Shown: positions 6,162-63,849, counted from the stretch's first letter. The stretch is DNA of 64,000 bases from an uncultured delta proteobacterium (GCA_963752035.1 CAVVWZ010000031.1:3115-67114), one strand, 5' to 3'. Numbers and translations are program-made. The notes: generated by a model not told the origin, from the sequence alone.

Positions 6162-6165
6162 ATCG

Positions 6166-10732: not shown

Positions 10733-10762
10733 CAAGCATCCTTTGGAATAGAAGAAACGCAA

Positions 10763-12148: not shown

Positions 12149-12164
12149 CCCACGGAGGGAACTA

Positions 12165-13274
12165 ATGGAAACACGTAAAGTATATGACAATCTGATTCTC
12201 TTGACGGTGCTTACCTGCGTGATTATTGGTATCATCATGGTGTACAGCTCAAGTTCGGTCTCTGCCGCAAAAAATTTCGGCACCGGAACCTATTTTCTTA
12301 AGCGGCAGATATGCTTTGCAGGAATTGGTTTTCTCCTTATGTTTCTGGCAATGAGAATACGATATCAGTATCTGAAGCACTTCGTATACTACATTCTCAT
12401 AGGCAGCATTCTGCTTCTGATCCTCGTTTTGATCCCGGGAGTGGGCACAACCATCGGCGGTTCCACACGGTGGTTCAGGTTTGGACCAATCTCATTTCAG
12501 CCGTCAGAGTTCACCAAACTGGCCCTGGTCATATTCCTTGCATATTCTTTATCCAATAAAACAGACAAAATCAAGACCTTCTCCATTGGATTTCTCCCTC
12601 ACGTAATTGCCACAATCATCCTGGTTTGCCTGCTTCTCTTGCAGCCGGATTTCGGTTCAGCCATGATTCTCGTTTCTCTCTTCACTATTCTCATATTTGC
12701 AGCAGGCAGTAACCTGAAACACCTTGCATCTTTCATAGCGGTGAGTACTGTGGGATGTTACTTTCTTATTTCTTCCGCCAGCTACCGATTAGCCCGGTTT
12801 ACTGCATTTCTCGATCCCTGGAGCGATCCCATGGCTACCGGCTTTCAGATTATTCAGTCATTCTTAGCCTTCGGTTCGGGTGGGCTCTGGGGAACCGGGC
12901 TCGGCAATGGTAAGCAAAAGCTTTTTTACCTTCCCGAACCTCACACCGATTTTATTTTTTCCATAATTGGAGAAGAACTGGGATTTATTGGAGTCATTGC
13001 AGTTATCGTTCTCTTTATCATCCTCACCTATTGCGGAATAAAAATATGTGCTAACGCGCCGGATCTCTTTGGAACCTATTTAGCCCTCGGCATCACTTCC
13101 TTCATTGTGCTGCACGCGGTCATTAATCTGGGTGTTGTAATGGGACTGTTACCCACAAAAGGGTCAACCTTACCCTTCATCAGCTACGGGGGGACATCGT
13201 TGGTAGTCAACCTCACGGGTATTGGCATTTTACTTAATATTTCGTCCCAATTCTCGATGAAACGTACGTCATGA
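12165..13274 (+). CDS. ftsW: Peptidoglycan glycosyltransferase FtsW (SEDS family)
   Basis: ATG at 12165 follows a GGAGGGA Shine-Dalgarno. The protein is polytopic, with RWFRFGPISFQPSEF and PFISYGGTS motifs. The upstream 79 codons of ORF 11928 overlap murD and are not credible. Confidence 0.9.
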   Translation: METRKVYDNLILLTVLTCVIIGIIMVYSSSSVSAAKNFGTGTYFLKRQICFAGIGFLLMFLAMRIRYQYLKHFVYYILIGSILLLILVLIPGVGTTIGGSTRWFRFGPISFQPSEFTKLALVIFLAYSLSNKTDKIKTFSIGFLPHVIATIILVCLLLLQPDFGSAMILVSLFTILIFAAGSNLKHLASFIAVSTVGCYFLISSASYRLARFTAFLDPWSDPMATGFQIIQSFLAFGSGGLWGTGLGNGKQKLFYLPEPHTDFIFSIIGEELGFIGVIAVIVLFIILTYCGIKICANAPDLFGTYLALGITSFIVLHAVINLGVVMGLLPTKGSTLPFISYGGTSLVVNLTGIGILLNISSQFSMKRTS

Positions 13275-42412: not shown

Positions 42413-43469
42413 TCACATAATCAGCCAGGGTTGGGGCAGGAAAATTTTCTCATAGAAGTTGAAGGCATATCGATCTGTCATGCCTGCGACAAAATCACAC
42501 ACTCGACGTTCTAATGATTCACCAGCACCGGGCCAGGAATATTCCTTAAGGAATTCATCTTCGTGATCCAGGAAATAGTGATAGAGTTCCCTCAGTATCT
42601 TTGAGGCCTTAATAAAATTGGAGTAAACTGCAGCTCCAAAATATACTTCTCTATAGAGGTACTCCCGCAGTTTTACTGTTTTCTCCATAACCGGTTGACT
42701 TAAGGTAATCTGCTCTCCCCCTGTCTCCTCTCCGACCTTCAATACATCTTTTACCATTACATCTATCCTGCGGGCCTGGGAATCACCAAGGAATGAAATA
42801 CAATCCTGTGGAAGATCATGATGAGAAATAACTCCAGCTCTCAGCGCATCGTCAATGTCATGATTGACATAGGCGATGATATCAGCAACTCTCACGATCT
42901 GTCCCTCCAGGGTTGCGGGCATGAATTGAGGATCACTTGCAATGATATCGCCCTCTCCTTTCGAGTGTTTCAAGAATTCCATCACGAACCTCATGGGTCA
43001 AATTCAGCCCTTTACCGTCCTTTTCCAAAATATCAACCACCCGCAAGCTCTGTTCGGGATGACGAAATCCACCGGGGAAGATCTCATTGAGAACCGCCTC
43101 ACCTGCATGTCCAAAGGAGGTGTGACCGAGATCATGGCCGAGGGCTATTGCCTCGGTCAGATCTTCATTTAATCGAAGGGATTTTGCTATGGTCCGGGCT
43201 ATTTGGGAGACCTCCAGGGTGTGGGTCAATCGGGTACGATAGTGATCACCCGTTGGGGCCAGAAAAACCTGTGTTTTGTGTTTGAGCCGTCGAAAGGATT
43301 TTGAATGGAGAATCCTGTCCCGGTCGTGCTGAAAAGCGGGCCTTATCTCACATAGATCCTCTTCAATCTTTCTTCCCCTGGTCCGGGAACTGAGCTGGGC
43401 AAGAGGGGAAAGTCTTAATTCTTCATCCTGCTCAAGCATTTCGCGGATACTCATTGTATGCCTCCTCAC
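42413..43469 (-). CDS. dGTP triphosphohydrolase-like HD-domain protein, frame broken near 42968-42970
   Basis: ORF 42933-43469 holds [15 protein letters not shown] and [13 protein letters not shown] 42413-42994 continues with KHSKGEGD...[17 protein letters not shown]. The join lies at a 3-nt homopolymer. Confidence 0.8.
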
Positions 43470-49385: not shown

Positions 49386-50383
49386 TCAAACTCTCGTCTG
49401 ATCCCGTATGATATAGTAACAGGCTCGGGCTAGCTTGTGGGCTATTGTTTTTCTCGCCACGATCAGATTGGTCTTAGCCATCTTCCTTTGATAGTAACGC
49501 TTCACGTACTCGTAATGCCGCAGTGCATGGTGTGCTGCCTCTACATATGCCCAGGACAAGTGCTTGTTTCCATTTTTACGGTTTCCTTTTCCTTTGACTT
49601 TTTCGTTCGAAAACCTCTTGCTTCCCACACACCGGCAATAGGATGCATAGTTTCCTACCTTCTCAAATCTCTCTATGGGACCGGTCTCATACATGATGGT
49701 CAAAGCCAGAATCTTCTTGTATCCCTGGTACCGTCATCAGCAACCTGTATTCATCTCTGAGTTTTGCAGCCTTGTGGATTGTTTTTTCTAATTGCTTGTA
49801 TTCTTTCAGCTAAAAAGAGTATTGTGGCAATGCTTACCTTGCCTGATACTACCAGGTGTTTATCATGGAAAAGGTGTTCTACATCATCTTCACTCAGTTT
49901 CTTGACGGCATTGCCATTCATGCTCTTACCCAGGTTCCGGGAAACAAGATTCTGAAAGCTTTGTATCTGGAGCGTGCGTTGTTGTACTAATTGCATCCGT
50001 TTCCGTAAGAGGTCTCGTATCGGTCGTTCCTCTTTCGGATAAATATATCCTGTCGGCAGGATACCAAGACGGAGCAGGTTCGCCAGGTGAAAGGCATCGG
50101 TAACGTCATCTGAATGTTTGAGCCCTGTATACTGCTTAATTGCTGAGGGATTTGCCAGATGTATAGTGTATCCCTCCTCGATCAGTCCATCTACCAGCCA
50201 ATACCAGTTGTAGGTCGATTCAACCACTATTCCTTTAACCTGGTCCCGGTAGGGCTTCAGTGCATGTAGTACCAGCCTCAAATCATTTTTTGTTTTCTTC
50301 TTGAACACTTTTTTGTTATCATTATCAATAATTGCTGTATAGCTGTTGTTTGAGTGTAAATCTATTCCTACGTAATGGTCCAT
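49386..50383 (-). pseudogene. IS110-family DEDD recombinase/transposase, frame broken twice (near 49810 and 49715)
   Basis: The N-terminus MDHYVGIDLHSNNSY matches the DEDD_Tnp_IS110 type. The middle part LLMTVPGI / KILALTIMYETGPIERF and the C-terminus YASYCRCV...GNKHLSWAYVEAA match the Transposase_20 type. They are recovered from three frames. Confidence 0.75.
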
Positions 50384-50805: not shown

Positions 50806-52483
50806 ATGAACCTTAGAAAATATCACTAGTTTTTGTTGTATGCTGTGCTTGTTTTGTTATGGTAAGTAGTACCAATGCTTTTGGCTCTTGGAGCATAGAA
50901 ACCTTGGATAGTATGGAGATGTAGGCTATGATACCTCCATATCAGTTGATTCACAAGACAAGGTACACATCAGTTATTATAATATACACATGACCTATTA
51001 AATACATTACCAACACCACAGGTTCCTGGGTACAGAGACGCTGGATGTCTCAAATTATGTAGGGTCCGTTTACTTCCACCTCTCTAGCAATTGACTCTCA
51101 AGATAAGGTGCACATCAGTTATTCTTAGTTCTTGCTTTTATAATCTTTGGATTTTGGAATATCATACACCACCAATGCAACAGGTTCGTGGGTAGCAGAG
51201 ACCCTGGGTAGCGTTGGAGACTGCACCCCATGTCTACCTCCATAGCAGTTGACTCACAGGACAAGGTGCACATCAGCTATGGTGGCCCCTTAAATACATC
51301 ACCAATGCCACAGGTTCCTGGGTAGCAGAAACGCTGGATAGCCCAGGCAGGCATTCCTCCATAGCGATTGACTCACAAGACAAGGTTCACATCAGCTATG
51401 TTGATAAGACTAATGATGACCTTAAATATAATACAAATGTCACTGGTTCCTGGATAGCAGAGACCCTGGATAGCGGTGGAGAATTTATAGGCAATTCCAC
51501 CTCTATAGCAGTTGACTCACAAGATAGGGTGCACATCAGTTATTATGATGCTACTAACGATGACCTTAAATACATTACCAATACCACAGGTTCCTGGGTG
51601 GCGGAAACGTTGGATAGCGTCTGGTATCTATTATAGATGGTAATAGCCACCTCCATAGCGATTGACTCACAGGATAAGGTGCACATCAGCTATTATGATA
51701 ATTATCACTGTGACTTAAAATATGCATGATGTGAAGTGGATCACGGAAACTACAGGTCCATGGGTTTACAGAGACAGTGGATAGCAGTGGAAGTGTAGGC
51801 ACGTGGAACTCCACAGCAGTTGACTCACAAGACAGGGTGCACATCAGCTATTTTGATAATACGAACGGAGACCTTAAATACGCCAAGCAATGTCTTGCAC
51901 CGGATTCTGATTGTGATGATATCCTGGATTATGAGGATAATTGTCCTGAAAACTTTAATCCAAGCCAAGTGGACACAGATGCTGACAGTATTGGAGATGT
52001 CTGTGACAACTGTCCTTTACACCCAAATAGTCCAGAGATAGGTATCTGCACCTGGGCATACACAGGTACAACCTGTTTGAGTGATGAGGAGTGTGGATAT
52101 GCGGGTTTTTGCAGTATAGATCAGGCAGACAACATTGATTGCGACTTGCAAGACAAATTTTGATTGCGATTACGATGTAGATGGGACTGATGCTGCTAAT
52201 TTTAAATTACATTTTGGAAGAAGCCTGTTTGACAATCCTTGTACAAATGGTGAGCCATGCAAGGGCGATTTTGAGTGTGATGGAGATGTGGATGGAAGTA
52301 ATGCAGCTGAGTTCAAGGGACGTTTTGGCACAGTTCCATTTCCACCGTATGGTTATTGCTTGTCCTGTGTTGATGGAGTATATCAATACGATTGCTCATA
52401 CTAAAATTATTTTCATTAATTTATTCAACAACCCCTGTCCGGCTTATGCAGTAGGGGAGTGGTGTGTGTATCCATTGCCATAA
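50806..52483 (+). pseudogene. Secreted repeat protein B, heavily frame-broken. It shares leader, signal peptide and C-terminal module with gene A but has seven different (S-I-A-x-D-S-Q-D-K-V-H-I-S-Y type) propeller-like repeats
   Basis: ATG 50806 is followed by a stop after 7 codons. The signal peptide (KISLVFVVCCACFVMVSSTNA) continues in another frame. Intact pieces are 51777-52163, 52135-52404 and 52181-52483. Confidence 0.6.
50940..51890 (+). repeat. Seven tandem coding repeats of 119-158 bp
   Basis: The anchor CACATCAG recurs at 50966, 51111, 51269, 51388, 51532, 51682 and 51839, inside conserved GACTCACA[AG]GA[CT]A[AG]GGT.CACATCAG[CT]TAT blocks. Confidence 0.85.
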
Positions 52484-53306: not shown

Positions 53307-54770
53307 CTAATCACTGGATGAGTTAGGACTTGTAGTGTGGGGGTTTGGCAGGGGCATTCCTAAAGCGGATAAGTACTGCTCGATCCAGCGAAAAATATTG
53401 TTTCGTCTTACTTCAGCACGTAGTTTTCTCATCCTCCTTTTCCGTTCTTCTTCCTCCATGTAGTATGCCTGGTGAATCCGGTCGGCAACTTCCTCTAAAT
53501 GGAACGGGTTGACCAGCAGAGATGCTTTCCCCAGCTGTTGGGCGGCACCGGCAAATTCACTTAAGATGAGAACACCATCTGTTTCCACACTTGAGGCACA
53601 GTACTCTTTTGCGATCAGGTTCATCCCATCTTTCAGGGGTGTAATCAGGGCGATTTCACTGGTGCGGTAGTAAGCTATGAGCTCTCTGCGGGAAAGGCTC
53701 CTGTATATGTAGAAAATGGGCACCCAGTCATGATAGGTAAATCGACCGTTAATCCTTCCTACCGTCTCATCAATGGTACGTTTCATGTCCTGGTATTCCT
53801 GCACATTGGTTCTGCTCGGAACCACAACCTGTATGAAATTGACTTTACCCCGCAAATCTGGATATTTCTCCAGGAGAAGTGAAAATGCTTCAAGACGTTC
53901 AAGAATGCCTTTGGTATAGTCGAGACGGTCGATCCCCAGTACCAGCTTTCGTTCGGGAAGGCGTTCATGAATGTACCAGGCTTCCTCAGCTACTTCCTTG
54001 GTTGAAGAACTCTGGTTGAATCCATCAAAGTCAATACTTATGGGGAAGCCTCCCACCCGGGTTACCCTGCCGTTGTGCTCAATGATCTGCATGCGTTGTG
54101 GACCGCTCACGAGGGCACCGGGAAACATTCTTCTGACACAACGGATGAAATTCCAGCGGTCCCGTTCGGTCTGAAATCCTACCAGGTCATAGTGCAGTAA
54201 CCCCTCAATCAGTTCTTTGCGCCAGGGCAGGCGCATGAAAAGGTCCCAGGGTGGGAAGGGGATGTGGAGGAAGAAAGCGGTTTTGCCCGGAAACTGCTGC
54301 TGGACGAGGAACTTTCCCACAAGCAGAAGGTGGTAGTCCTGAACCCATATAAGATCCTGTGGAGAGCTCTGTTCCAGGGTTACTTGTGCGAACTTTTGAT
54401 TAACTTTGCAGTACATCTCCCAGGTTTCAGGTTGGAATTGACAGCGGTCTAAAAAATCATGGAAGAGGGGCCAGAGGGTAGTGTTGCTGAACCCCTCGTA
54501 GTACAGCTCCACTTGCTGGGAGGTGAGAGAAACAGGAATTAACCGGTATCCGATTCTGCTGGATTCTTTTTGGAACAGTTTTTTGTGGTAATGACCGCTG
54601 GTAGTCCCGTCCCATCCAATCCAGATCCCTCCCCGGTCCCGGAGGACCGGGGCAAGGGCGGTTACCAAACCGCCAGATCCGGGAATGAGTTCTGATTTTT
54701 TTCCTGTGCGGACTATTTTTACGGGGAGTCGATTTGAAACGATAATGATATTATTTTGTTGCACATCCAT
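53307..54770 (-). CDS. otsA: Alpha,alpha-trehalose-phosphate synthase (GT20)
   Basis: 487 aa with IVSNRLPV, GGLVTAL, WIGW, and C-terminal DGMNLIAKEY motifs. Confidence 0.9.
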   Translation of the reverse strand: MDVQQNNIIIVSNRLPVKIVRTGKKSELIPGSGGLVTALAPVLRDRGGIWIGWDGTTSGHYHKKLFQKESSRIGYRLIPVSLTSQQVELYYEGFSNTTLWPLFHDFLDRCQFQPETWEMYCKVNQKFAQVTLEQSSPQDLIWVQDYHLLLVGKFLVQQQFPGKTAFFLHIPFPPWDLFMRLPWRKELIEGLLHYDLVGFQTERDRWNFIRCVRRMFPGALVSGPQRMQIIEHNGRVTRVGGFPISIDFDGFNQSSSTKEVAEEAWYIHERLPERKLVLGIDRLDYTKGILERLEAFSLLLEKYPDLRGKVNFIQVVVPSRTNVQEYQDMKRTIDETVGRINGRFTYHDWVPIFYIYRSLSRRELIAYYRTSEIALITPLKDGMNLIAKEYCASSVETDGVLILSEFAGAAQQLGKASLLVNPFHLEEVADRIHQAYYMEEEERKRRMRKLRAEVRRNNIFRWIEQYLSALGMPLPNPHTTSPNSSSD

Positions 54771-54850
54771 GCTGAAACCTGAGTAGAGAACGTGAGCGCC
54801 TGTACCAGAAGAAGATGGTTACCACAGAACTGCCCGGAGAATGATATGCT

Positions 54851-55285
54851 TTATCCTCTTCCGGTTCTGAATCGGGGAGTTTTAGCAATGTCTGCAAGGG
54901 AATATCGTTTGGCTGTGTTCAGGAATCTTTCCAGGATTTTCCTCCGTATAACACCGACATATTTTCCTTCTTTCATTACTACCAGACGGGTGCGCCCTGT
55001 TTTTTCAAAGAGCTCCATGCATTTTTCAAGACTATCCTCAGCATCACAGCAATCAAGGGGCGAGGTCATTATGTCCTGTGCCTGGGTTGTTTCAAACTCC
55101 TTGTGTTTCAGGACAGCTCTCAGGAGATCTTTTTCAGTTATGATCCCGACAATATCCTGATTGTCGCTGATGAGAACTGAACCCGCATCTTCATCGATTA
55201 TCTTCTGTGCAATTGTATTGAGATTACTGGTGGCAGGGCAGATGACAGTTTTGGAAAGCATAATAGAAGATACACTGATGTCCAT
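54851..55285 (-). CDS. CBS-pair domain protein
   Basis: 144 aa with two CBS motifs (VGIITEKDLLRAV, VGVIRRKILERF). Confidence 0.8.
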   Translation of the reverse strand: MDISVSSIMLSKTVICPATSNLNTIAQKIIDEDAGSVLISDNQDIVGIITEKDLLRAVLKHKEFETTQAQDIMTSPLDCCDAEDSLEKCMELFEKTGRTRLVVMKEGKYVGVIRRKILERFLNTAKRYSLADIAKTPRFRTGRG

Positions 55286-55370: not shown

Positions 55371-55399
55371 TTGACAGGTGCTGGTGAAACATATTATAG
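55371..55399 (+). promoter_or_regulatory. Putative sigma70 promoter of the redox operon (TTGACA-N17-TTATAG, overlapping TATTAT)
   Basis: TTGACA at 55371-55376 with an AT-rich -10 region at 55392-55399. This leaves a leader of about 165 nt before the first start codon. Confidence 0.35.
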
Positions 55400-55567
55400 A
55401 TAGTCCTTGCATTTTTGAGCTCATACCCGTGTACACCCCATGTTTATCATTTTCCGTGTTGGTACGATGGGTGATTGATGCCTGTTTGAGACACCTATCT
55501 ACGGCAGGTTCAGCCGGTAATGCAATACAAACCATAACTATCAGGTAGTGCTAAAAGGAGACGTATT

Positions 55568-55738
55568 GTGATTCAAATAGACAGGGAAACATGTGTCGGT
55601 TGTGGAGGCTGTGTTGATCTCTGCCCCCGGACCGCACTCTGTTTCATTAAGGATCGCGCATTTGTAGATGTGGAATTGTGCTTAGAGTGTAAAACCTGTG
55701 TCAATGTCTGCCCGGTAAAGGCACCCCGAGTACTTTAG
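55568..55738 (+). CDS. 2x[4Fe-4S] ferredoxin (56 aa)
   Basis: GTG start after an AAAGGAG Shine-Dalgarno. The motifs are CVGCGGCVDLCP and CLECKTCVNVCP. It is below the ORF-track length cut-off. Confidence 0.7.
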   Translation: MIQIDRETCVGCGGCVDLCPRTALCFIKDRAFVDVELCLECKTCVNVCPVKAPRVL

Positions 55739-55785
55739 AACCCTGTCGCAGGGTATGAACGAAAACGTTTATTAGATTTACTACT

Positions 55786-56088
55786 TTGTTGAAAGGAGAA
55801 GGGATTTTGGAATCCAGCGTACGGTTTCAAAAAAAGATGATTGAATGCTCACTGCTTGAACAAGACAAGGGGAAACCTTTCCGTTCGGAAGATCGGCCGG
55901 AGTGGACTCCTGAGTGGGATCGCGACAAATGTATCCGCTGTGGACTTTGCTATGTGTATTGTCCCGATGGAGCTGTTTATCGAACTGATGACGGCTTTTT
56001 TGACGTAGACGGAGACAAGTGTAAAGGATGCGGCATTTGCCATAGAGAATGCTGGTTTGGAGCCATCAGCATGGTAGAGGAGGAGTAG
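55786..56088 (+). CDS. PorD-like (2-oxoacid:ferredoxin oxidoreductase delta-type) 2x[4Fe-4S] protein
   Basis: 100 aa with CIRCGLCYVYCP and CKGCGICHRECW motifs, preceded by a W-x-x-W-D-R-D-K-C context typical of PFOR delta subunits. Confidence 0.7.
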   Translation: MLKGEGILESSVRFQKKMIECSLLEQDKGKPFRSEDRPEWTPEWDRDKCIRCGLCYVYCPDGAVYRTDDGFFDVDGDKCKGCGICHRECWFGAISMVEEE

Positions 56089-56090
56089 GT

Positions 56091-56819
56091 ATGGATAAGT
56101 TCAGTCTTTATGTTTCAAATTTCCTGCCGTGCAAGGAATACTTCGTTCCGGAAAAGAACCCGGCCTGTCCAGGATGCGGGCTTGCCCTGGCTATTCGCCA
56201 GACCTATAAGGCACTGGAGAAAGATATTGAAAAGGCAGTCTGGCAGTCCCTGGAGGGAAGTAATGCTGCAGGCAACACCCCTGATATATTTGGAGTAGGG
56301 AAAACAGGTGTTTCATTTTTGAGTATCCCGAAAAAAAGCAAATCACATCTCGTGATATGCCTTGACAATGAGGCAGGGGGATCTCTGGATGATGCTCTGG
56401 AAAAGTCCATGCCATCCCTTGCCGTTGCTGAAGACTTTTCTTATGTGGCAACTGCATGTCCCAGCCATCCCTTCGATCTATATGAAAAGGTGCAGAGAGG
56501 GTTTCAGACGGAAGGAAATTCCTACATTCACATTCTCTGCCCATGTCCTGAGGGCTGGCAATTTGACCCTGACCTCACTGTTAAAGTCGGGCAGTGGGCA
56601 GTTGAAAGCAGGGCTTTCCCGTTGTATGAAGTCGGCGGTGGCGTGTATGATATTACGGTGAAGACGCCTACCCCGAAGGCACTGACTGAGTACCTCACAC
56701 CTCAACTGCGGTTTGAGGGCCTTTCTGATCAAGAGATTGAAAACGCCCAGGAGAGTGTTACTACCGGGTATAAAAAGCTGGAAGAAGCTGTTCAGAGCTA
56801 TCTGGACACGACGGGATAA
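56091..56819 (+). CDS. PorB-like (PFOR beta-type) protein lacking the TPP-binding GDG motif
   Basis: ATG at 56091 follows a GAGGAGGAG Shine-Dalgarno. The N-terminal ACPGCG, LCPCPEGW and AVESRAFPLYE match PFOR beta landmarks. No GDG tripeptide occurs anywhere in the 242 aa. Confidence 0.55.
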   Translation: MDKFSLYVSNFLPCKEYFVPEKNPACPGCGLALAIRQTYKALEKDIEKAVWQSLEGSNAAGNTPDIFGVGKTGVSFLSIPKKSKSHLVICLDNEAGGSLDDALEKSMPSLAVAEDFSYVATACPSHPFDLYEKVQRGFQTEGNSYIHILCPCPEGWQFDPDLTVKVGQWAVESRAFPLYEVGGGVYDITVKTPTPKALTEYLTPQLRFEGLSDQEIENAQESVTTGYKKLEEAVQSYLDTTG

Positions 56820-56870
56820 ATTCCATTTTTCGGCAAGTGGTTACGGATATCTTTAAAAGGAGCTAGAAAA

Positions 56871-57818
56871 ATGTCTGATGTTAAATGGGCACCTGACGGA
56901 AAGAGTATGTTTCAAAAACTGATAAAAGCGGTTCCTGAAGCTATGAGGGACATGGTTAAACCGCAGCTGTTGCAGTTATTGTCGGCAAAAGCCGCCGGGA
57001 AGCCGGTGACCAGTGAAATAATAACCAGAATGGTTCAGGAAGATTTACCAGAGCCTCAGAAGAGTGTGATTATGCAGGCACTCGGTATTGAAAAGCCGGC
57101 TGAAAAGAAGCCCGCAAAGAAGGATGTACCACCTTCAGAGGGTGGTACGGTTCAATTGTCAATGGAGGACAACTGGGAAGGGAACAGTCAGTCCATGTTT
57201 GACCGGATGATCAATGAGGTCCCGGAGGCCCTGAGGGATATTTTCCGCGGAAAGCTGATGGATATTCTCAAACAGAAGGCGAAAGGGGGAGCCTACCAGG
57301 AGTCCCACATTGTAGAGATTGTTAACGAAATCGTTCCGGAGCCTTTTAAATCAAACATCATCAAGGCATTTTCCACCATCGGCGGGGTGGATGTGAGCGC
57401 TGTTAAAGGAATTATTGAAGCTATTCCGGGAGGTCAGGAAACCCTGATCACCCTGCTGCATGCCATACAGGCCCAATATGGCTATGTCCCTGAAGAGGCC
57501 CTGCAGATTGTGAGTCAAAAAAGGGGTGTTTTTATGAGCACCCTCTACCGGTTAGTCAGTTCTTATCAGGCCTTCCGCACGGAGGCACCCAAGAAGTACT
57601 TGGTGAGCATTTGTGACGGTACCGGGTGTCATGTCAACGGTAGTGGAACACTCCTTAAAAAACTCGAAGAGAAAAGTTCATGCACCGATTCCCAAATCAC
57701 CTTAGAAAAGGTTAGATGTCTTGGGTGCTGTGATCTATCACCGGCAGTAATGGTAAACGGAGAGTTGTATGGCGGTCCTGATGCCCAGGCAAAGATTTCA
57801 GAAATTTTAGGGGAATAG
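56871..57818 (+). CDS. NuoE/HydC-like [2Fe-2S] protein with two N-terminal PCP_red-like repeats
   Basis: The C-terminal part carries CDGTGC...CLGCC (thioredoxin-like 2Fe-2S). The N-terminus has two about 70-aa repeats: KWAPDGKSMFQKLIKAVPEAMRDMVK and NWEGNSQSMFDRMINEVPEALRDIFR. Confidence 0.8.
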   Translation: MSDVKWAPDGKSMFQKLIKAVPEAMRDMVKPQLLQLLSAKAAGKPVTSEIITRMVQEDLPEPQKSVIMQALGIEKPAEKKPAKKDVPPSEGGTVQLSMEDNWEGNSQSMFDRMINEVPEALRDIFRGKLMDILKQKAKGGAYQESHIVEIVNEIVPEPFKSNIIKAFSTIGGVDVSAVKGIIEAIPGGQETLITLLHAIQAQYGYVPEEALQIVSQKRGVFMSTLYRLVSSYQAFRTEAPKKYLVSICDGTGCHVNGSGTLLKKLEEKSSCTDSQITLEKVRCLGCCDLSPAVMVNGELYGGPDAQAKISEILGE

Positions 57819-57831
57819 AAGAGAGGATTAT

Positions 57832-59545
57832 ATGAAATTAAAAAAAGCAGATGACCTTACCAAAATCAAAAAAGAGGGAATGCAACTTCTTGCTCCGTCC
57901 AGAACCCGCATAACCGTGGGAATGGCAACCTGCGGGTTAGCGAAGGGGGCAGGAAAGGTTTACGAGGCTTTAAAATATGAACTCAAGAAGCAGAAAGTCA
58001 AGGCTGACCCGGTTGTTGTGGGATGTAATGGCCTCTGCTATGCTGAGCCCATCGTTGAGGTGATTCGACCCGGCAAACCACGCATTACCTATGGAAATGT
58101 CAGCATGGAAAAGATTAATGAGCTGATTGCCTCCATTAAGTCGGGCACAGTCTTAAAAGACCTTGTTCTCATGAGACAGGATAAGTATAAAACAGCAGCG
58201 GGAACCGAATCCCTGCAGTATGCTAAGGGAAAACTCCCTAAGGCTTACTCAGGTGTAAAAGAATCTCAGAAAATTGACTTTTATAAACGCCAGATGAAAC
58301 TGGTGAGCAGCAGTGCCGGCACCATAAGCCCTGACAGTATTGAAGAGTATTGTGCCCTGGGTGGTTACCAGGCACTGGTGAGTGCCCTTACCACTATGGA
58401 TCCGGAAGATGTTATTAAGCAGGTGTCCATTTCAAAACTGAGAGGCCGTGGTGGTGCAGGATTTCCAACCGGCGTTAAGTGGCAGACATGCCGCCAGGCT
58501 GATGATCATACCAAATACATCGTTTGTAACGGCAGTGAAGGTGATCCCGAAATCGGCATGCACCGCAGCTTTCTGGAATCAGACCCCCACCTGGTTATCG
58601 AAGGTATGTTACTTGCCGGCTATGCCGTTGGAGCTCAGGAAGGATATATTTACTTAAATGATAAATATACAGTTGCCCTGGAACGCCTGGAGCGTGCCAT
58701 TGTACAGGCAGAAAAGCTGGGCCTGTTAGGCAAGAATATACTGGGATCAGGGTTTTCTTTTGCCATCAAGGTAAAACGGGGAGGCGGCGCCTATGTGTGC
58801 GGTGAGGAAACCGCACTGCTGAATGCCCTGGAGGGTTCATTTGGTGAGCCACGGCCGAGACCTCCCTATCCGGCGGAGAAAGGACTTTTTGGGAAACCTA
58901 CCGTAGTAAATAATCTCGAAACACTGGCTACTATCCCCGTGATTATTGTCAAAAGGTGGCAAGTGGTTTGCAGGTATTGGCACGCCGGCCAGTAAGGGCA
59001 CTAAAATAGTGGCACTTTCAGGCAACGTTGCACAGAGCTGCTGGGTTGAAGTGCCCCTTGGTACGGGGATTAAGGACGTCATTGACATCTTTGGTAAAGG
59101 TGTGGCAAACGGCAAGAAGATAAAGGCCTTCCAGGCGGGAGGACCTTCGGGGGGGATACTTCCTGCAAAGTCTTTGAAGATGAAACTTGATTATGATCAG
59201 TTGAGCAAGGCAGGGAGTCTGCTTGGCTCAGGTGGACTTCTGGTTATGGATGAAGACACTGATATGCTTGACATGGCCAAGTTTTTTGTTGATTTTTTTG
59301 CAGATGAGTCATGTGGTAAGTGCAGCACATGCAGAGAAGGCTCCAAGCGGCTTCAGGAGATTCTTGAAAGTATTATGGAAGGGCAGGGGACCACGGATCA
59401 TATCAAACTCATCAAACGTTTAGACTCTGCCATGGCAGTTGCCTCCGCCTGTGCGCTTGGCAAGACTGCTGCTCTACCTATAATCTCGGTGCTCAAACAC
59501 TTCCCTAAAGAAATTGAGGGTAGGCTCATTAAAAAGAAAGCATAA
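57832..59545 (+). CDS. NuoF/HydB-like NAD(H)- and FMN-binding Fe-S subunit, frame broken at the A4 run 58951-58954
   Basis: It has an N-terminal thioredoxin-like domain, RGRGGAGFPTGVKW and EGDPE motifs. VNNLETLATIPVIIV then continues as KGGKWFAGIGTPASKGTK in ORF 58946-59545, with the C-terminal CGKCSTCREG cluster. Confidence 0.85.
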
Positions 59546-59584
59546 TGATTTTATGACGTAATGCTAAGATAGGGGATTAATTCT

Positions 59585-60523
59585 ATGGTTAGTTTGAAGA
59601 TAAATGGAAAAAAAGTAAAAGCGGATGAGGGCACAACCATTCTTAAGGCAGCTCGTGCCAATGGTATTGAAATACCGACACTCTGTTCGAATGATGGGCT
59701 TGAGGCCTATGGGGCCTGCCGCCTCTGTATTGTTGAGATAAAAAAAAGCGGAAGGGTCGCCATTGAAACCTCCTGTACCTATCCTGTAGAGGAAGGGCTG
59801 GAGGTAAAAACAAGCACACCCCGTATCATTGACGCGAGAAAGGTGATCGTCGAACTGCATTTGGCACGGTCCCCCAATGTTAAAGTCATAAGCCAGCTGG
59901 CTGAAGAATACGGTATTACAGAAAGTGCCAAGGAGATGGGTAAGGATAATGAGTACTGCATTCTCTGCGGGCTCTGTGTTCGTGCCTGTAATGACGTGGT
60001 AAAGGCGGGGGCTATAAACTTTGCAGGAAGCGGTATTTTTAAGGTGGTTGATTCCCCCTTCAGCAAAACCGCTGATGAGTGTATTGCCTGTGGTTCCTGT
60101 GCATTTGTCTGCCCAACCGGCATTATTAAGAAAAATGATCTGGCATCAACATCCCTTTGTACTCCGGAAGGTTGTGAACCTACAGGTGCTCAGAGGGAAT
60201 TGCTCAACTGGAAGGTAGAGCGTAAATTGAAAGTCTGCAAGAAGTGCCAGAACCCCTATGCACCGGAGTTCCATCTGGAAAAGGTGAAACGTGAACAGAA
60301 CCTTCCCAATGAATTTTTTGATATTTGTCCCTCATGCCGCCAGTATCCGGTCGTTGATCCAGACAAGTGTTTGGGATGTGGTGGCTGTATGGAAAATTGC
60401 CCCTGCGGGGCACTGGAGCTTGAAGACAAAGGGGGTTATGACAAAAAGGCACAGTTGTATCCTCAAAACTGTACCGCCTGTCACAGTTGTGAACTCGTTT
60501 GTCCGATGCAAGCCATTAGCTAA
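59585..60523 (+). CDS. NuoG/HydA N-terminal-type Fe-S protein ([2Fe-2S] plus several [4Fe-4S]) without a catalytic domain
   Basis: 312 aa. It has MVSLKINGKKV...CRLCIVE (2Fe-2S), CILCGLCVRAC, CIACGSCAFVCP, CLGCGGCMENCP and CTACHSCELVCP. It ends after the ferredoxin modules. Confidence 0.8.
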   Translation: MVSLKINGKKVKADEGTTILKAARANGIEIPTLCSNDGLEAYGACRLCIVEIKKSGRVAIETSCTYPVEEGLEVKTSTPRIIDARKVIVELHLARSPNVKVISQLAEEYGITESAKEMGKDNEYCILCGLCVRACNDVVKAGAINFAGSGIFKVVDSPFSKTADECIACGSCAFVCPTGIIKKNDLASTSLCTPEGCEPTGAQRELLNWKVERKLKVCKKCQNPYAPEFHLEKVKREQNLPNEFFDICPSCRQYPVVDPDKCLGCGGCMENCPCGALELEDKGGYDKKAQLYPQNCTACHSCELVCPMQAIS

Positions 60524-60554
60524 AAGGTGATGATAAAAAGGTAAGGAGGATTTA

Positions 60555-61853
60555 ATGACAGAGTATGATCTTGCCATTGTTGGCGCCGGTCCTGGAGGTG
60601 TTCATACTGCCAAGTGGGCAGCCAAGAAAGGCCTTAAAGTTATTCTCATTGAGAAACGAAAAGACATTTCCAAAATTACCCGTTACTGTAGTGAGCATTT
60701 AATTTTAGATGAGGGCTACAATGGGGATACCGTTCTGGTGGATCCTGAGAAAGGGAAGATAACCTCAACGACTGTCGGATGGGAAGTGGACTACAAAGGG
60801 ACTCTGTTTCCCTGTATACACAAATATTACTATTCCCCCAAGGGGAATCCCATCCACTTTGCCTGGCCGGACAACAGACCCTACGCCTACAAGTACGATA
60901 AGGGGTTTCTCCTGCAGAGCCTGCTGGAAGAATGCCTGGCACTGGGAGTGACCTATCAGAATGAAACGTCTGGTTATGATGCCATTGACAGTGCTGACGG
61001 GGTTGAGGTCAAGTGTGTGAGCAAGGGCAAGAAGTTTAAAATAAAAGCAAAAAAACTGGTTATTGCAGATGGATGCAGCACCCGCCTGGGTCAGGCCATG
61101 GGGTTTAATGCAGATCGTGGCTATATGGGCGTTGCACTCTGTATGGCTACCTACATGTCTGGTGTGAAAGAATATGATCCGGCTGAATGGGTGCTCTGGT
61201 ATGGCAGGTGCTATGGTTCAAATATGGCCCCCATTATAGGTACCGGTCCGGCAGGTCATTTTGAGGACTGGGCAGATGTAATTAACCTTGGCAGTGCAGT
61301 GGACTTGCCGGTGAAGGCCTTTGACCGGTTCACTAAAGAAAGTCCCATAGCCGACAGGTTTGCCAATGCCAAAATAGAGGAACGCTACTGTTGCTCGGTC
61401 AAGGCCTTTACACCCATTGCCAGGCCTTGTAAAGGCAATGTGATTATTATAGGTGATTCTGCTGCCTTTGTGGAGGTGCAGGGTCAAGGGGCCTTGAGCT
61501 GCGGTTATAAGGCGGCAGAGGCTATTGCCAAGGAACTTGAGGGTAAAAACGGCTTTGATGAGTACACCAAGTGGTGGATGGATTCATTTGAGTTTAATGA
61601 TGAGGGTATGCTCCAGGTGCAGCAGGGATATGCTTTAATACCCACCTACACTGACGAGGAGGTTGACTACCTCTTCTCACTCTGTTCTGACGTTCTCCTG
61701 GACGGAAGCTTCAGCCAGTATAAATCATCCAGAATGATATGGGATGCCATACTCCGGGACCCAAAAAGAATTGAACGGGAACGCCCGGGCATCTTTACAA
61801 AAATCAAAAATGTACGGGGCACTACCCTAGAAAGCAGCCTTTCAGAAGGCTAG
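60555..61853 (+). CDS. FAD-dependent oxidoreductase, FixC / geranylgeranyl-reductase (COG0644-like) family
   Basis: 432 aa with the N-terminal YDLAIVGAGPGGVHTA...LIEKR dinucleotide fold and an internal IIIGDSAAFV motif. Confidence 0.75.
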   Translation: MTEYDLAIVGAGPGGVHTAKWAAKKGLKVILIEKRKDISKITRYCSEHLILDEGYNGDTVLVDPEKGKITSTTVGWEVDYKGTLFPCIHKYYYSPKGNPIHFAWPDNRPYAYKYDKGFLLQSLLEECLALGVTYQNETSGYDAIDSADGVEVKCVSKGKKFKIKAKKLVIADGCSTRLGQAMGFNADRGYMGVALCMATYMSGVKEYDPAEWVLWYGRCYGSNMAPIIGTGPAGHFEDWADVINLGSAVDLPVKAFDRFTKESPIADRFANAKIEERYCCSVKAFTPIARPCKGNVIIIGDSAAFVEVQGQGALSCGYKAAEAIAKELEGKNGFDEYTKWWMDSFEFNDEGMLQVQQGYALIPTYTDEEVDYLFSLCSDVLLDGSFSQYKSSRMIWDAILRDPKRIERERPGIFTKIKNVRGTTLESSLSEG

Positions 61854-61875
61854 ATTGTGACGTATACTCAGTAAA

Positions 61876-61908
61876 AGCCAGGGGGGAATAACTACCCTGG
61901 CTTTTTTT
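61876..61908 (+). terminator. Rho-independent terminator of the redox operon
   Basis: AGCCAGGG...CCCTGGCT stem followed by T7. Confidence 0.8.
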
Positions 61909-62076
61909 ACTTATCAAGTACTATGTCGTTGACATAGTACGTAAAAGATGTTATCAACCATTATTAGAACGCGTTACAATTTCCCTGGCTGGTAGTGGTA
62001 CACACAGGTTTTTAATTGAATTTCATGTGTTGCCCGGTCTTAATATGTTTGATAACTAGTGAATGGAGGACGGTTT

Positions 62077-63849
62077 ATGGACTGTAAAAAGATCGTCAGG
62101 TATTTTACTTTGTTCTTGCTCTTTGTCTGTATTTCATGGCCTACTTCCTGCGGGGTGGTACAGGAAAAGATCGGGGTTATCTTCGTGGTTCACGGCGGTA
62201 TGAGTGAGTACAATGATCAGTACCTCTGGGATGCGGGGTTACAGCAATTTTCCTTTGATCCCAACCATTCGGTTTACAAGCTTGCCATTTGGAATCCTGC
62301 CCAGTGGCAGATTAGTAATGCAGGTGGAGTCTTCAGTAAAATTTCAGAGGAAATATTTATTTGAATATCCTCGGCTCAACGATTGGGACCCCTTTCACGA
62401 TGTAACCGATCTCCAGTTTGAAGATTTGAAGACCGCGTTGGACGAGATAGGGGATGCTGAAGGGCTCACCTTTGAATACGATTGGGCAGCCTGGATGTGC
62501 GGTGAGTGTCCCGCCAATTATCCCTATCCCCGCTTTATCTATTATGGCCCTGATGGCCTTGCTGATCCGGAAGGAGACTATCCTGACGTCACCTACTGCG
62601 GTGAAGATGAGCCGGGTGGTGCCTGGTCTGGCTGTGATCCTGACCGTTATGACGTAGACGGTCCTGCGGAGCGGTTGCTTAAGAAAGGGGTTTCCCGTAT
62701 CATCATGGTTGATTTAACCGTTGGTGGGGTGCGCTTTGGAAAGACCTATGATGTTGTGCAAATGACCAAGCGGGTTATCGATGACTGGAACGAAGAAAAT
62801 GGAACAGACTTTCCCTATCCACTCTGGGTAAATGACTACACCAACCTGATGGAGAGATCCTTTCCCACCCTGCCTCCGGCTGGACCAGAAGTGTAGGACT
62901 TCCTGAAGAAGATCAGGAGGTTCCCCTTGATGGAAGCCCTAACCCCATTTCGGAAGACCCACTGTTAGCTACCCTGCAGGTAGAGGCGATTGAAGTATCT
63001 CTCTCCGATACTGTTTCAGATGCAGAAACGGGGATTATTCTGTTAAACCATGCCCTGCATGACAACAACGAGTGCTTTGATCCCAAGATTGATGACACCC
63101 TTATCCTTAATAATAATATTAAGGCCCAGCTCTTAGCGGATCACCCGGATATGGTGGCGGAAAACATTATCGGGGCCTACATGGGCATTAAAGAAGAAAA
63201 TCCCGCCAACGGCCTGGTCGAACGGACCCGGGATATGCGTGGTGAAGCGCTGGGCTCTGCCTGGCTTTATGAGAGTGACAAAGAACTTCCCGGAGATGAG
63301 TGGGGCTACCGTTACTGGGACGCCCTGGAGTATTTGAAAAACCGGGGTGTGAAGCATATTGTGATAGGCTTCCCCCAGATCGTTGCCGACTCAGTGTTGA
63401 ACCTGATTGAGTTTCCCAACCAGATTGGAAAGGAGATCGGGTATAAGACCTGGGCCCAGTGGGAAACTCAGGACCTGACAACCTATCCCGGAGTAGGGCA
63501 TCCCTTTACCGATTACTGGGGTAACTGGGTAGATACCGAATGTGATGGAGAAGCCTGTTGTTTTACCATGGGTGGTTGTGGTGTTCCCGGAGATTATCCC
63601 CCGGCACGACAGGCTCCCCTCGACAAGAAACGGGATGACATGGATCCTTCCCTGGCCTATGAGGTGAGTGAGTATGGTCATCTGGGTTATGATGCAGCCC
63701 TTGGTGCCCCCGATCCTGATAGCCCGGTACAGGATCAGTACACCGGTACCTGGGCAATGTACCGGCCCCCCAATGACGATCCGCGGATAGCCGGGTTAAT
63801 GGCAAACCACCTACTAAAAGCTGCCCTTGGGGAGTATGATACTGAATGA
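62077..63849 (+). CDS. Exported (possibly lipoprotein) two-lobed class II chelatase-like (CbiX/ferrochelatase-like) protein, frame broken near 62320 and 62875
   Basis: ATG 62077 follows a GGAGGA Shine-Dalgarno. The signal peptide ends in SCG. Lobe 1 has IGVIFVVHGG. Lobe 2 has TGIILLNHALHD and HIVIGFPQIVADSVLNLIE. Three ORF pieces (62059-62364, 62204-62896, 63151-63849 plus its open upstream frame) join into about 590 aa. The functional call is tentative. Confidence 0.35.

Follow-up and report, generated by a model that had tools for sequence, protein, structure and literature searches.

A cluster of seven genes in DNA from an uncultured delta proteobacterium encodes a putative flavoprotein-coupled NuoEFG-type complex, clearly descended from Por-Bfu, that falls outside the definitions of both BfuB and PFOR (pyruvate:ferredoxin oxidoreductase) and below the curated cut-off for geranylgeranyl reductases (GGRs). 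The cluster occupies positions 55568-61853 on the + strand of a 64,000-nt stretch (GCA_963752035.1 CAVVWZ010000031.1:3115-67114), the whole of which is called the window here. Its seven open reading frames (ORFs) are all co-directional in the ORF listing and are separated, in cluster order, by 47, 2, 51, 13, 39, and 31 nt, in agreement with the seven co-directional genes and the 2-51 bp spacing given by a first-pass annotation made from the sequence alone. In that order they encode a ferredoxin (Fdx), PorD-like, PorB-like, NuoE-like, NuoF-like, and NuoG-like proteins, and an FAD flavoprotein, identities that profile annotation has borne out. The reading preferred here, held tentatively and with slightly less than even confidence, is that the operon encodes one soluble multi-subunit Fe-S flavoenzyme of Por-Bfu ancestry that would carry electrons from NADH to a GGR-fold flavoprotein by plain electron transfer.

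Sequence comparison and modeling establish the gene content, its conservation, the Por-Bfu descent, the loss of the TPP and B2-B4 sites, and the GGR fold; the assembly of this enzyme, the order of its electron carriers, its substrate class, and its coupling mode we infer as follows. The 2-oxoacid chemistry of the ancestor has been lost, with PorA and PorG gone and PorB left without its thiamine pyrophosphate (TPP) site, and the PorD and PorB remnants would form a catalytically dead, three-cluster electron wire; the BfuB homologue has lost its own ferredoxin-binding C-terminal clusters. NADH would be oxidized at the FMN of the NuoF-like subunit, and electrons would pass by way of the N3 [4Fe-4S] cluster to the NuoG-like subunit, which has one [2Fe-2S] cluster and four of the [4Fe-4S] type, and then, through a dedicated 56-aa ferredoxin, to the FAD of the flavoprotein. 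The latter would reduce a C=C bond of an organic substrate, most probably a tetrapyrrole-derived compound or, as second choice, an isoprenoid, to judge from the gene neighborhoods of its family. The pair of PorD and the truncated PorB-like protein (PorB′) is most likely a docking site and entry point for the general ferredoxin of the cell. Plain transfer from NADH, with reduced ferredoxin as an extra or alternative donor, is considered more likely than obligatory bifurcation because the low-potential branch of BfuB is missing.

Descent from Por-Bfu and conservation of the cluster

Por-Bfu, in which a pyruvate:ferredoxin oxidoreductase is coupled to a BfuABC NADH/ferredoxin module, is a predicted type-2 member of the BfuABC family, characterized by prediction alone (Schut et al. 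2022, PMC9304861). Among the nearest full-length PorB genes (30-35% identity) from the PorB scan described below, 38 lie on contigs that extend far enough on the 3′ side, and in 32 of these loci NuoE and NuoF genes come immediately after PorB. The order in one Por-Bfu locus, L158, is a PorG-PorD fusion, PorA, PorB with its TPP domain, BfuC (157 aa), BfuB (634 aa; [2Fe-2S] domain at the N terminus, Fer4 domain at the C terminus), and BfuA (241 aa), which is the order of the window once PorA and PorG are taken away; identity between the two loci is 30% for PorB, 33% for NuoE, 43-48% for NuoF, and 48% for NuoG. Because gene order and the nearest PorB neighbors match in this way, the PorB/PorD pair is regarded as a remnant of Por-Bfu and not as a new recruit, and sequence comparison places the origin of the cluster in a Por-Bfu ancestor. 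The two systems have homologous PorD, PorB, BfuC/NuoE, BfuB/NuoF, and small BfuA/NuoG subunits, the BfuA of Por-Bfu being of the small type without a His-ligated cluster region, as is the NuoG-like protein of the window. They differ in that the window lacks PorA, PorG, the TPP motif, and the His/Cys site and C-terminal 2x[4Fe-4S] domain of BfuB, has Tyr for Phe near the FMN, and has gained two repeats on BfuC, a Cys4 motif and 2x[4Fe-4S] on BfuA, the ferredoxin, and the GGR-fold flavoprotein.

The PorD-like protein (55786-56088, + strand; 100 aa) is a 2x[4Fe-4S] protein of the PFOR delta type that scores 73.6 bits with TIGR02179 (PorD_KorD; cut-off 60.05), and its 8 cluster cysteines are invariant in 21 orthologues, as are C21 and H86. 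Its gene lies directly upstream of the PorB-like gene in all loci. PorB′ (56091-56819, + strand; 242 aa) aligns over residues ∼100-235 to PorB and to the beta subunit of oxalate oxidoreductase and scores 125 bits with the NCBIfam PorB model (cut-off 405), in a match confined to the C-terminal half. No Pfam domain and, in particular, no TPP_enzyme_C was found in PorB′, whereas the true PorB of a Por-Bfu locus gives TPP_enzyme_C at 75.6 bits. About 75 residues of a normal PorB are deleted, and a reading by eye against a typical PorB, with no residue-level alignment, suggests that the GDG of the TPP motif was lost with them, as was the third Cys of the cluster. In an alignment of 37 family members (A3), C26, C29, and C152 are invariant and C90 is nearly so, and PorB′ probably carries one [4Fe-4S] cluster.

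Both the flavoprotein and the PorB-like protein had been put forward as candidate active sites in the first-pass annotation. The former is indeed likely catalytic, but PorB′, as judged from its sequence, cannot bind TPP and hence is no candidate; it was rejected as a second active site because TPP_enzyme_C is not matched and both the TPP motif and the third Cys of the cluster appear to be deleted. That no alpha or gamma subunit of PFOR is encoded, also claimed at first pass, was confirmed by tblastn with PorA and PorGD of Por-Bfu, which found no homologue of PorA or PorG anywhere in the 64-kb window (the PorD part alone matches), and both genes are likewise absent in all orthologous loci.

To recover related loci, one genome per species was scanned with a profile of the flavoprotein, giving 80 loci, with which the seven window proteins were then compared by tblastn; the loci are phylogenetically related, and their counts are not independent events. 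The complete seven-gene order is present in 21 genome loci, with 6 more cut by contig ends, and a metagenome scan with a PorB′ profile gave 10 further complete copies, which rules out a lack of synteny. Only L013 is rearranged, to NuoG-FAD-Fdx ... PorD-PorB-NuoE-NuoF. All predicted cluster ligands are invariant in the 21 orthologues. The hosts are metagenome-assembled genomes (MAGs) of Thermodesulfobacteriota or "delta proteobacterium" and one single-amplified genome (SAG) of Spirochaetota, largely relatives of sulfate reducers, and the system has escaped biochemistry because it has so far been found only in such uncultured organisms. No characterized counterpart was found among Pfam and NCBIfam names, in the PDB, or in the literature. 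The statement at first pass that the combination is no described enzyme stands in that sense, but the cluster does have relatives, since it derives from the class predicted as Por-Bfu.

Motifs of the truncated family served as seeds for the PorB scan, which is biased to the closest relatives of that family. In all 26 of the metagenome loci with a truncated PorB, as far as the contigs reach, PorD precedes it and NuoE and NuoF follow, and PorD-PorB′-NuoE-NuoF is the invariant core. Where PorB′ is at least 50% identical to the window copy, Fdx, NuoG, and FAD genes are also present, giving the seven-gene form, whereas more distant PorB′ copies occur without Fdx and FAD. One of these, L112 (8693-13609), has PorD-PorB′-NuoE-NuoF-NuoG and no other partner gene, the next gene being a convergent one for a transporter; another, L088 (7880-12333), has PorD-PorB′-NuoE-NuoF followed by rubrerythrin, an arrangement that recalls the predicted type-4 "Rub-Bfu." In this comparison Fdx and the flavoprotein resemble a terminal-reductase module that was added to the core, as in archaeal ferredoxin-GGR pairs. 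The NuoG-like gene always adjoins the FAD gene in cluster loci, L013 included, mostly at 30-50 nt and at most at ∼230 nt (L005, L093, and L094). Genes for electron-transferring flavoproteins (EtfA/EtfB, FixA/FixB) were found neither in the cluster nor in any orthologous locus.

The NADH module and the case for bifurcation

The NuoF/BfuB-like FMN/NADH subunit (57832-59545, + strand; 570 aa after correction of a frameshift described below) is composed of an N-terminal [2Fe-2S] domain, an FMN/NADH domain, an SLBB domain, and the N3 [4Fe-4S] domain, with scores of 150 bits for Complex1_51K and 100.7 bits for NADH_4Fe-4S; SLBB is weak in the window protein (18.7 bits) and above cut-off in the L112 orthologue (30.6 bits). 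The N-terminal domains of NfnB and 9bov_B align with residues 26-105, CG...GCxGxC cysteines included, and this region also gives a weak 2Fe-2S_thioredx match. The best PDB matches are all bifurcating B subunits (NfnB 9n5u, 514 bits; HydB, 501 bits; also 9bov, 7q4v, and 7t2r), compared with 341-385 bits for FdsB and 331 bits for Nqo1 of non-bifurcating enzymes.

BfuB is defined by IPR011538 (FMN/NADH), IPR019554 (SLBB), IPR019575 ([4Fe-4S]), and a C-terminal IPR017896 (Schut et al. 2022, PMC9304861). Nearly all BfuB also have a His/Cys site after N3 (cluster B2 or a metal site), and the BfuABC family further has the N-terminal [2Fe-2S] of BfuB (B5), BfuC (IPR002023), and BfuA with [2Fe-2S] and 4Fe-4S (PMC9304861). 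The window has the FMN/NADH, SLBB, and N3 domains, the B5 domain, and BfuC and BfuA alongside; what it lacks is a ferredoxin domain at the C terminus and the His/Cys site. Throughout the clade, IPR017896 (2x[4Fe-4S]; clusters B3 and B4) and the His/Cys site are both absent, the chain ending 27-29 residues after the last N3 cysteine in the window (27), in 20 of 20 orthologues, and in L088 and L112. The window tail, KTAALPIISVLKHFPKEIEGRLIKKKA, contains no Cys, and its sole His belongs to a conserved FP/FR motif and not to an H-x5-C-x4-C site; the BfuB tails of Por-Bfu, by comparison, are 93-94 aa long (...EAHIKDKRCPAGVCK...), with H-x5-C-x4-C and two CxxCxxCxxxC motifs.

Residues near the flavin give a mixed picture. 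Bifurcating flavoprotein subunits have Ala or Glu at the position of HydB-232, Met at 234, Phe at 367, and GGPSG in SLBB (Losey et al. 2020, PMC7311640). The NuoF-like protein has GDPEIGMHR, with Ile at 232 and Met at 234, keeps GGPSG in SLBB, and, with its whole clade, has GGGAYVCGE, in which Tyr stands where bifurcating enzymes have Phe. The corresponding segments in Por-Bfu relatives are GDPGAFMDR, GGGAFVCGE, and GGPSG. As far as the sequence can tell, the label "bifurcation-type" given to the NADH module at first pass is therefore only partly supported: similarity to BfuB, the N-terminal [2Fe-2S], the Met, and GGPSG speak for it, but the C-terminal domain and the His/Cys site are missing and Tyr replaces Phe.

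These same features bear on whether the complex might be a true bifurcating or confurcating enzyme, which is considered rather unlikely but is the strongest rival of the preferred reading. In such an enzyme the three-cluster wire of PorD and PorB′ would replace the low-potential branch B2-B4, and NADH oxidation would reduce both ferredoxin, through PorD, and the C=C substrate, through NuoG, Fdx, and FAD, with energetics like those of Bcd-Etf and caffeyl-CoA reductase. It would account for the closeness of the NuoF-like protein to proven bifurcating B subunits and for the features kept from them, and across all loci the BfuB tail is missing exactly where PorD and PorB′ have been kept. The Por-Bfu ancestors carry the full Bfu signature, and the delta subunit of PFOR is a ferredoxin-docking site. 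Set against these points are the absence of the BfuB-defining His/Cys site and of the two C-terminal clusters, the Tyr near the FMN, which is the residue of non-bifurcating enzymes, and the lack of fusion or structural evidence placing PorD beside NuoE or NuoF. Among 1423 representatives, only ∼12 of them of the truncated type, no PorB′ fused to NuoE, NuoF, or other partners was found; the long matches are ordinary fused PFORs, and the distant truncated representatives P0272 and P0306 have too little flanking sequence to inform.

Plain electron transfer, the reading preferred here, has parallels in non-bifurcating NADH-dependent NuoEF-type enzymes, namely the HydAB(C) of Syntrophus/Syntrophomonas, the NAD-formate dehydrogenase FdsABG, and Nqo1-3 (PMC7311640), which share with the window the absence of a C-terminal ferredoxin domain and the Tyr by the FMN. 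These differ from the window NuoF, which is nearer to the bifurcating clade by the scores given above and has retained Met and GGPSG along with the [2Fe-2S] domain at its N terminus.

The remaining two subunits of the module are likewise of Bfu type. The NuoE/BfuC-like [2Fe-2S] subunit (56871-57818, + strand; 315 aa) matches 2Fe-2S_thioredx over residues 179-313 (E = 5.7e-31). Its N-terminal extension of 175 aa consists of two copies of an ∼85-aa repeat (56871-57395; pattern KWxPDGxxxFxKxxxxVPExMR...), both of which match DUF2621 weakly, and a third copy is fused to the N terminus of NuoF in one sub-clade (L001, at 6987-7270, L023, L024, L026, L027, and L029). The NuoG-N/BfuA-like subunit (59585-60523, + strand; 312 aa) is made up of Fer2_4 and four Fer4 stretches. 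It has a [2Fe-2S] cluster and 2x[4Fe-4S], then an invariant Cys4 motif, and at the C terminus a second 2x[4Fe-4S] domain, and its cysteine pattern is invariant. Among PDB entries it matches the small BfuA of Wor-Bfu (9mqx_A) best, and over the first 256 residues it shares 48% identity with the 241-aa BfuA of Por-Bfu loci. No His-ligated cluster region, H-cluster, molybdopterin, or other catalytic domain was found in it, and profile annotation, which gives Fer2_4 and Fer4 alone, agrees with the first-pass description of a protein without an H-cluster or molybdopterin domain. The Cys4 motif, which is lacking in the 241-aa BfuA, lies between two ferredoxin-like halves at residues 218-251 (60236-60340) and reads C218-x2-C221 ... 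H230 ... C248-x2-C251, all invariant; to judge from these residues, it could be an extra metal site for Zn or rubredoxin-like Fe.

In Wor-Bfu, a tungsten aldehyde oxidoreductase with a BfuABC "plug" (PDB 9MQX; PMC12318220), a small BfuA also leads to separate catalytic subunits, and just as 9mqx_A is the best solved match to the NuoG-like protein, 9mqx_B is a strong match to the NuoF-like protein. Wor-Bfu differs in its tungstopterin catalytic partner and polyferredoxin and in that bifurcation has been demonstrated for it; its BfuB has 622 aa against 570 aa in the window and keeps the C-terminal region as judged by length alone, the tail being unaligned. Wor-Bfu and Por-Bfu fall in one BfuB clade, 45, with Bam (PMC9304861). 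The class II benzoyl-CoA reductase BamB-I (Bam-Bfu) similarly joins the NuoEFG-like BamGHI to unrelated catalytic and Fe-S subunits in Desulfobacterota, whereas the window has neither a tungsten AOR-type BamB nor Hdr-like subunits, and its likely catalytic subunit is a flavoprotein. The cluster would thus add a flavin-dependent C=C reductase to the known partners of NuoEFG-type modules, namely hydrogenases, formate dehydrogenases, Nfn, W-oxidoreductases, and Bam. It is also a natural experiment on the Bfu family, in which a lineage without the ferredoxin-binding clusters of BfuB has yet kept a PFOR beta/delta remnant, and as such it bears on which cofactors bifurcation needs and on whether a PFOR delta module can be the low-potential branch.

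The flavoprotein and its candidate substrates

The FAD protein (60555-61853, + strand; 432 aa) has a Rossmann N terminus and scores 69 bits with GG-red-SF, below the curated cut-off of 158.8, and, among equivalog models, those for DGGGPL reductase, BchP, and MenJ align with no more than its Rossmann N terminus. Its AlphaFold2 (AF2) model has a pLDDT of 90.4 and the three-domain fold of GGRs, and the first Foldseek match is the Thermoplasma GGR Ta0516 (3oz2; TM 0.69/0.75, E = 6.5e-26, 19% identity), with Sulfolobus GGR at ranks 2 and 5-7 and flavin-dependent halogenases also following. FixC (7koe_C) is found at rank 14 with a TM of 0.62, and its profile match of 44.5 bits covers mostly the Rossmann part. 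The profile search agrees with the fold in giving a full-length alignment to GGR alone. Of the "FixC/GGR-family" label applied at first pass, the GGR half is thus favored, the modeled flavoprotein being closer to GGR than to FixC. C45 and C280 are invariant across 63 family members, the FAD-binding GAGPGG (GxGxxG) is invariant as well, and Cys45 (RYCSEH) aligns in sequence with the vR-CGEgL segment of 3oz2, the active-site Cys region of GGR. On these grounds the FAD protein appears to be the only plausible catalytic subunit of the cluster.

The dedicated 56-aa 2x[4Fe-4S] ferredoxin (55568-55738, + strand; Fer4 families match) is the most conserved product of the cluster, with 75-92% identity across loci and 8 of 8 cluster cysteines invariant in the 21 orthologues. 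It is missing from the four- and five-gene forms and adjoins the FAD gene in L013, and small Fdx-like genes adjoin FAD paralogues in L047, L049, L060, L067, and L076. Archaeal GGRs (3oz2, 3atq) resemble the window protein in fold, in an invariant Cys that aligns with the active-site Cys region, and in having a 2x[4Fe-4S] ferredoxin in the operon, a dedicated co-transcribed ferredoxin being described for Thermococcus Fd-2/TK1088 and for the Methanosarcina GGR (PMC6401487). The window protein differs from them in that identity is 14-19% and the score falls below the GGR cut-off, the YxWxFP-type motif is unrecognizable, no lipid-biosynthesis genes are nearby, and the enzyme is coupled to an NADH module.

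Homologues of the FAD protein are unnamed, and some Desulfobacterota MAGs contain several per genome. In a quick neighbor-joining tree the cluster-linked flavoproteins form one clade, within which a nested sub-clade has left the cluster and adjoins GlcD-like FAD_binding_4, CCG protein, FMN_red, PNPOx-like, and Fer4-DUF169 proteins. Because this sub-clade has left the cluster and Fdx-like neighbors recur with the paralogues, the flavoprotein and ferredoxin behave as a terminal reductase served by interchangeable electron-input modules. Such mobility, together with the L088 and L112 forms and the separation of the two halves in L013, might point to two enzymes: an NADH:ferredoxin oxidoreductase of PorD-PorB′-NuoE-NuoF(-NuoG) and a separate, co-transcribed GGR-like reductase supplied by diffusing Fdx, much as archaeal GGRs use a free dedicated ferredoxin (PMC6401487). 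This arrangement is judged unlikely. The NuoG-like and FAD genes stay adjacent in every cluster locus, even in L013, and electron transfer from NADH to low-potential ferredoxin without a driving reaction is endergonic.

The substrate of the single enzyme favored here was sought in gene neighborhoods. A two-round hidden Markov model (HMM) search found an ORF like the ferredoxin-dependent bilin reductases (FDBR; PF05996) no more than 10 kb away in 26 of the 88 FAD loci, in many cases as the immediate neighbor (L002-L006, L008, L009, L017, L041, L042, L048, L053, L055, L056, L058, L060, L061, L065, L066, L070, L074, L076, L078, L081, L083, and L087). Five of these are cluster loci: at L005, L006, L008, and L009 a tandem pair of FDBR-like genes lies 1.5-2.8 kb downstream, and at L017 the FDBR-like ORF lies 286 nt downstream. 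The association spans Bacillota (among them Ruminiclostridium papyrosolvens C7 and Clostridium MAGs) and Desulfobacterota; no FDBR-like ORF was found at the FAD loci of Roseburia and Acetatifactor. The nearest solved relative of one FDBR-like protein is phytochromobilin synthase, and PNPOx-type split-barrel and flavodoxin-like proteins also recur beside the FAD family. The FAD/FDBR association was, like the cluster itself, found undescribed in the sources searched. FDBR-like loci often also contain tandem FAD paralogues, nitroreductase, Dus-like, and MerR/TetR genes.

Downstream of the cluster, three ORF pieces at 62059-63849 (+ strand), with at least two frameshifts, are colinear with a 586-aa lipoprotein (L079:8129-9889), which itself lies directly upstream of an FAD paralogue. 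The AF2 model of the L079 protein (pLDDT 83.5) has ferrochelatases (class II chelatase) as its top 44 Foldseek matches, with a TM to target of 0.5-0.74. Sequence searches with the downstream lipoprotein gave no PDB match and only a faint Ferrochelatase match in Pfam (E = 0.057), the fold search alone resolving the family. The gene at 62059-63849 is its own transcription unit and is possibly linked in function to the cluster. The family is large, with 396 matches among unannotated Desulfobacterota proteins, some of which carry TSP_3 repeats. The L079 gene also adjoins genes for a secreted CxxCH and PNPOx-like protein and for an 880-aa secreted protein. Because of the FDBR-like neighbors and the ferrochelatase-fold lipoprotein gene, the neighborhood hints at a tetrapyrrole-derived (bilin-like) substrate as the leading candidate, with an isoprenoid second.

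An isoprenoid connection is suggested by a UbiA prenyltransferase gene 3-9 kb downstream in 7 loci of one sub-clade (L001:19808-21155, L086:5934-8238, L089:18006-18672, L021, L026, L028, and L032), paired in 6 of them with a UbiD decarboxylase gene; the pair could reflect a prenylquinone (menaquinone) link or inherited synteny. It is one of the points in favor of a Fix/EtfABCX-like NADH:menaquinone oxidoreductase, in which the flavoprotein would act as FixC/ETF-QO, Fdx as FixX, and NuoEF(G) in place of EtfAB. FixABCX/EtfABCX (PDB 7KOE) indeed has a flavoprotein of the same superfamily with a 2x[4Fe-4S] partner (FixX beside FixC), draws its electrons from NADH, and has ferredoxin as an additional redox partner, and the match to 7koe_C is significant by both structure and profile. 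The proposal is nonetheless quite improbable, since GGR is the better match by rank, TM, and full-length alignment, EtfAB is absent, UbiA/UbiD linkage is limited to the one sub-clade, and the recurrent partners are FDBR-like, PNPOx-like, and flavodoxin-like reductases and not quinone enzymes.

Taken further, the neighborhood evidence might suggest that the flavoprotein family is a new class of flavin-dependent tetrapyrrole (bilin- or porphyrin-derived) reductases, acting in anaerobic reduction or catabolism with FDBR-like, split-barrel, and flavodoxin-like partners. The seven-gene complex would then be an NADH/ferredoxin-driven, possibly energy-conserving version in which dead PorB and PorD replace the Bfu ferredoxin branch, and outside the cell the tetrapyrrole would be bound, or stripped of its metal, by ferrochelatase-fold lipoproteins. 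This broader proposal is speculative and is given little weight. Were the tetrapyrrole link true, it would mean a new anaerobic route of bilin/porphyrin reduction in sediments and guts, and gut Clostridia relatives with tandem FAD paralogues and FDBR-like genes would be candidates for as yet unassigned steps of bile-pigment reduction.

Several points weigh against a single NADH-driven enzyme acting on a tetrapyrrole-derived substrate. The four- and five-gene forms show the core without the flavoprotein, so that Fdx and FAD could be a separate client. The NuoF-like subunit retains the N-terminal [2Fe-2S], the Met, GGPSG, and its top similarity to bifurcating B subunits, which leaves some likelihood to bifurcation. 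Its gene is frameshifted in the window, whose copy may be inactive. The flavoprotein scores under the curated GGR cut-off. As for the substrate, the tetrapyrrole argument comes from neighborhood, FDBR-like genes lie near only some cluster loci, adjacency of the cluster to a member of a 396-match ferrochelatase-fold family could be by chance, and the UbiA-UbiD pair would equally allow a prenylquinone link.

Frameshifts, transcription signals, and flanking genes

The NuoF-like gene, which the first-pass annotation gave without a break, is present as two ORFs, 57832-58995 (387 aa) and 58946-59545 (199 aa), with a +1 shift in GTCAAAAGG; GTCAAAAGGTGG at 58948 puts the AAAA run at 58951-58954. Deletion of one A yields the 570-aa protein, which is colinear with every orthologue, and the orthologues are intact. 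At least two further genes of the window are likewise split, the chelatase-like gene at 62059-63849 and an HD/HD_assoc dGTPase gene at 42413-43469 (- strand), and for this reason an indel-prone assembly appears to be the simplest explanation of the NuoF split. In the latter gene the HD and HD_assoc domains, normally part of one dGTPase-type protein, sit in two overlapping ORFs. More same-strand ORF pairs overlap in different frames, for example at 4302-7708 and 10733-13274 (+ strand), which suggests that still more indel errors are present in this assembly. The NuoF tblastn match likewise ends early in L009, one of the closest relatives and a MAG with long contigs.

The frameshift might alternatively be taken, with the loss of PorA and PorG and the truncation of PorB and BfuB, as a sign that the cluster is a decaying relic of a Por-Bfu operon nearing loss and without a function of its own. 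This is very improbable, as intact ORFs and invariant cluster ligands persist in more than 30 loci at identities as low as ∼50%, the lineage has gained the NuoE repeats, the C-terminal clusters of NuoG, Fdx, and FAD, and the other split genes of the window point to assembly indels.

A sigma-70-type promoter (55371-55401, + strand) is read directly in the sequence as TTGACA at 55371 followed by TATTATAGA. A strict consensus scan did not list it, although it is visible by eye, and the promoter block CTTGACAG-N14/15-TA(T/C)TATAGA is kept in 8 related loci (L007, L008, L009, L092, L093, L094, L099, and L100), downstream of which the leaders vary in length and sequence. The intrinsic terminator (about 61868-61900, + strand) has a GC-rich stem of 8 bp (AGCCAGGG / CCCTGGCT), an 11-nt loop, and a T7 tail, with a minimum free energy of -27 kcal/mol and z = -4.26, and 0 of 200 shuffles fold equally well; its absence from the automatic scan is due to the loop-size limit of that scan. 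Both signals had been proposed at first pass, as a sigma70-like promoter at 55371 and a strong terminator at 61876, and both hold up. A riboswitch in the ∼190-nt leader was considered and rejected: an Rfam search up to E = 5 gave zero matches, and the leader is unconserved among relatives, which keep the promoter alone.

Upstream of the cluster, and divergent from it (53307-55285, - strand), are genes for a GT20 trehalose-6-phosphate synthase-like protein and a CBS-domain protein. This pair is syntenic only with L007 (L007:1232-3244; 77-78% identity), the flanks of the cluster being otherwise unconserved. The region further upstream contains thrombospondin type-3 repeat ORFs in overlapping frames and an IS110-family transposase (51777-52404 and 49751-50383).

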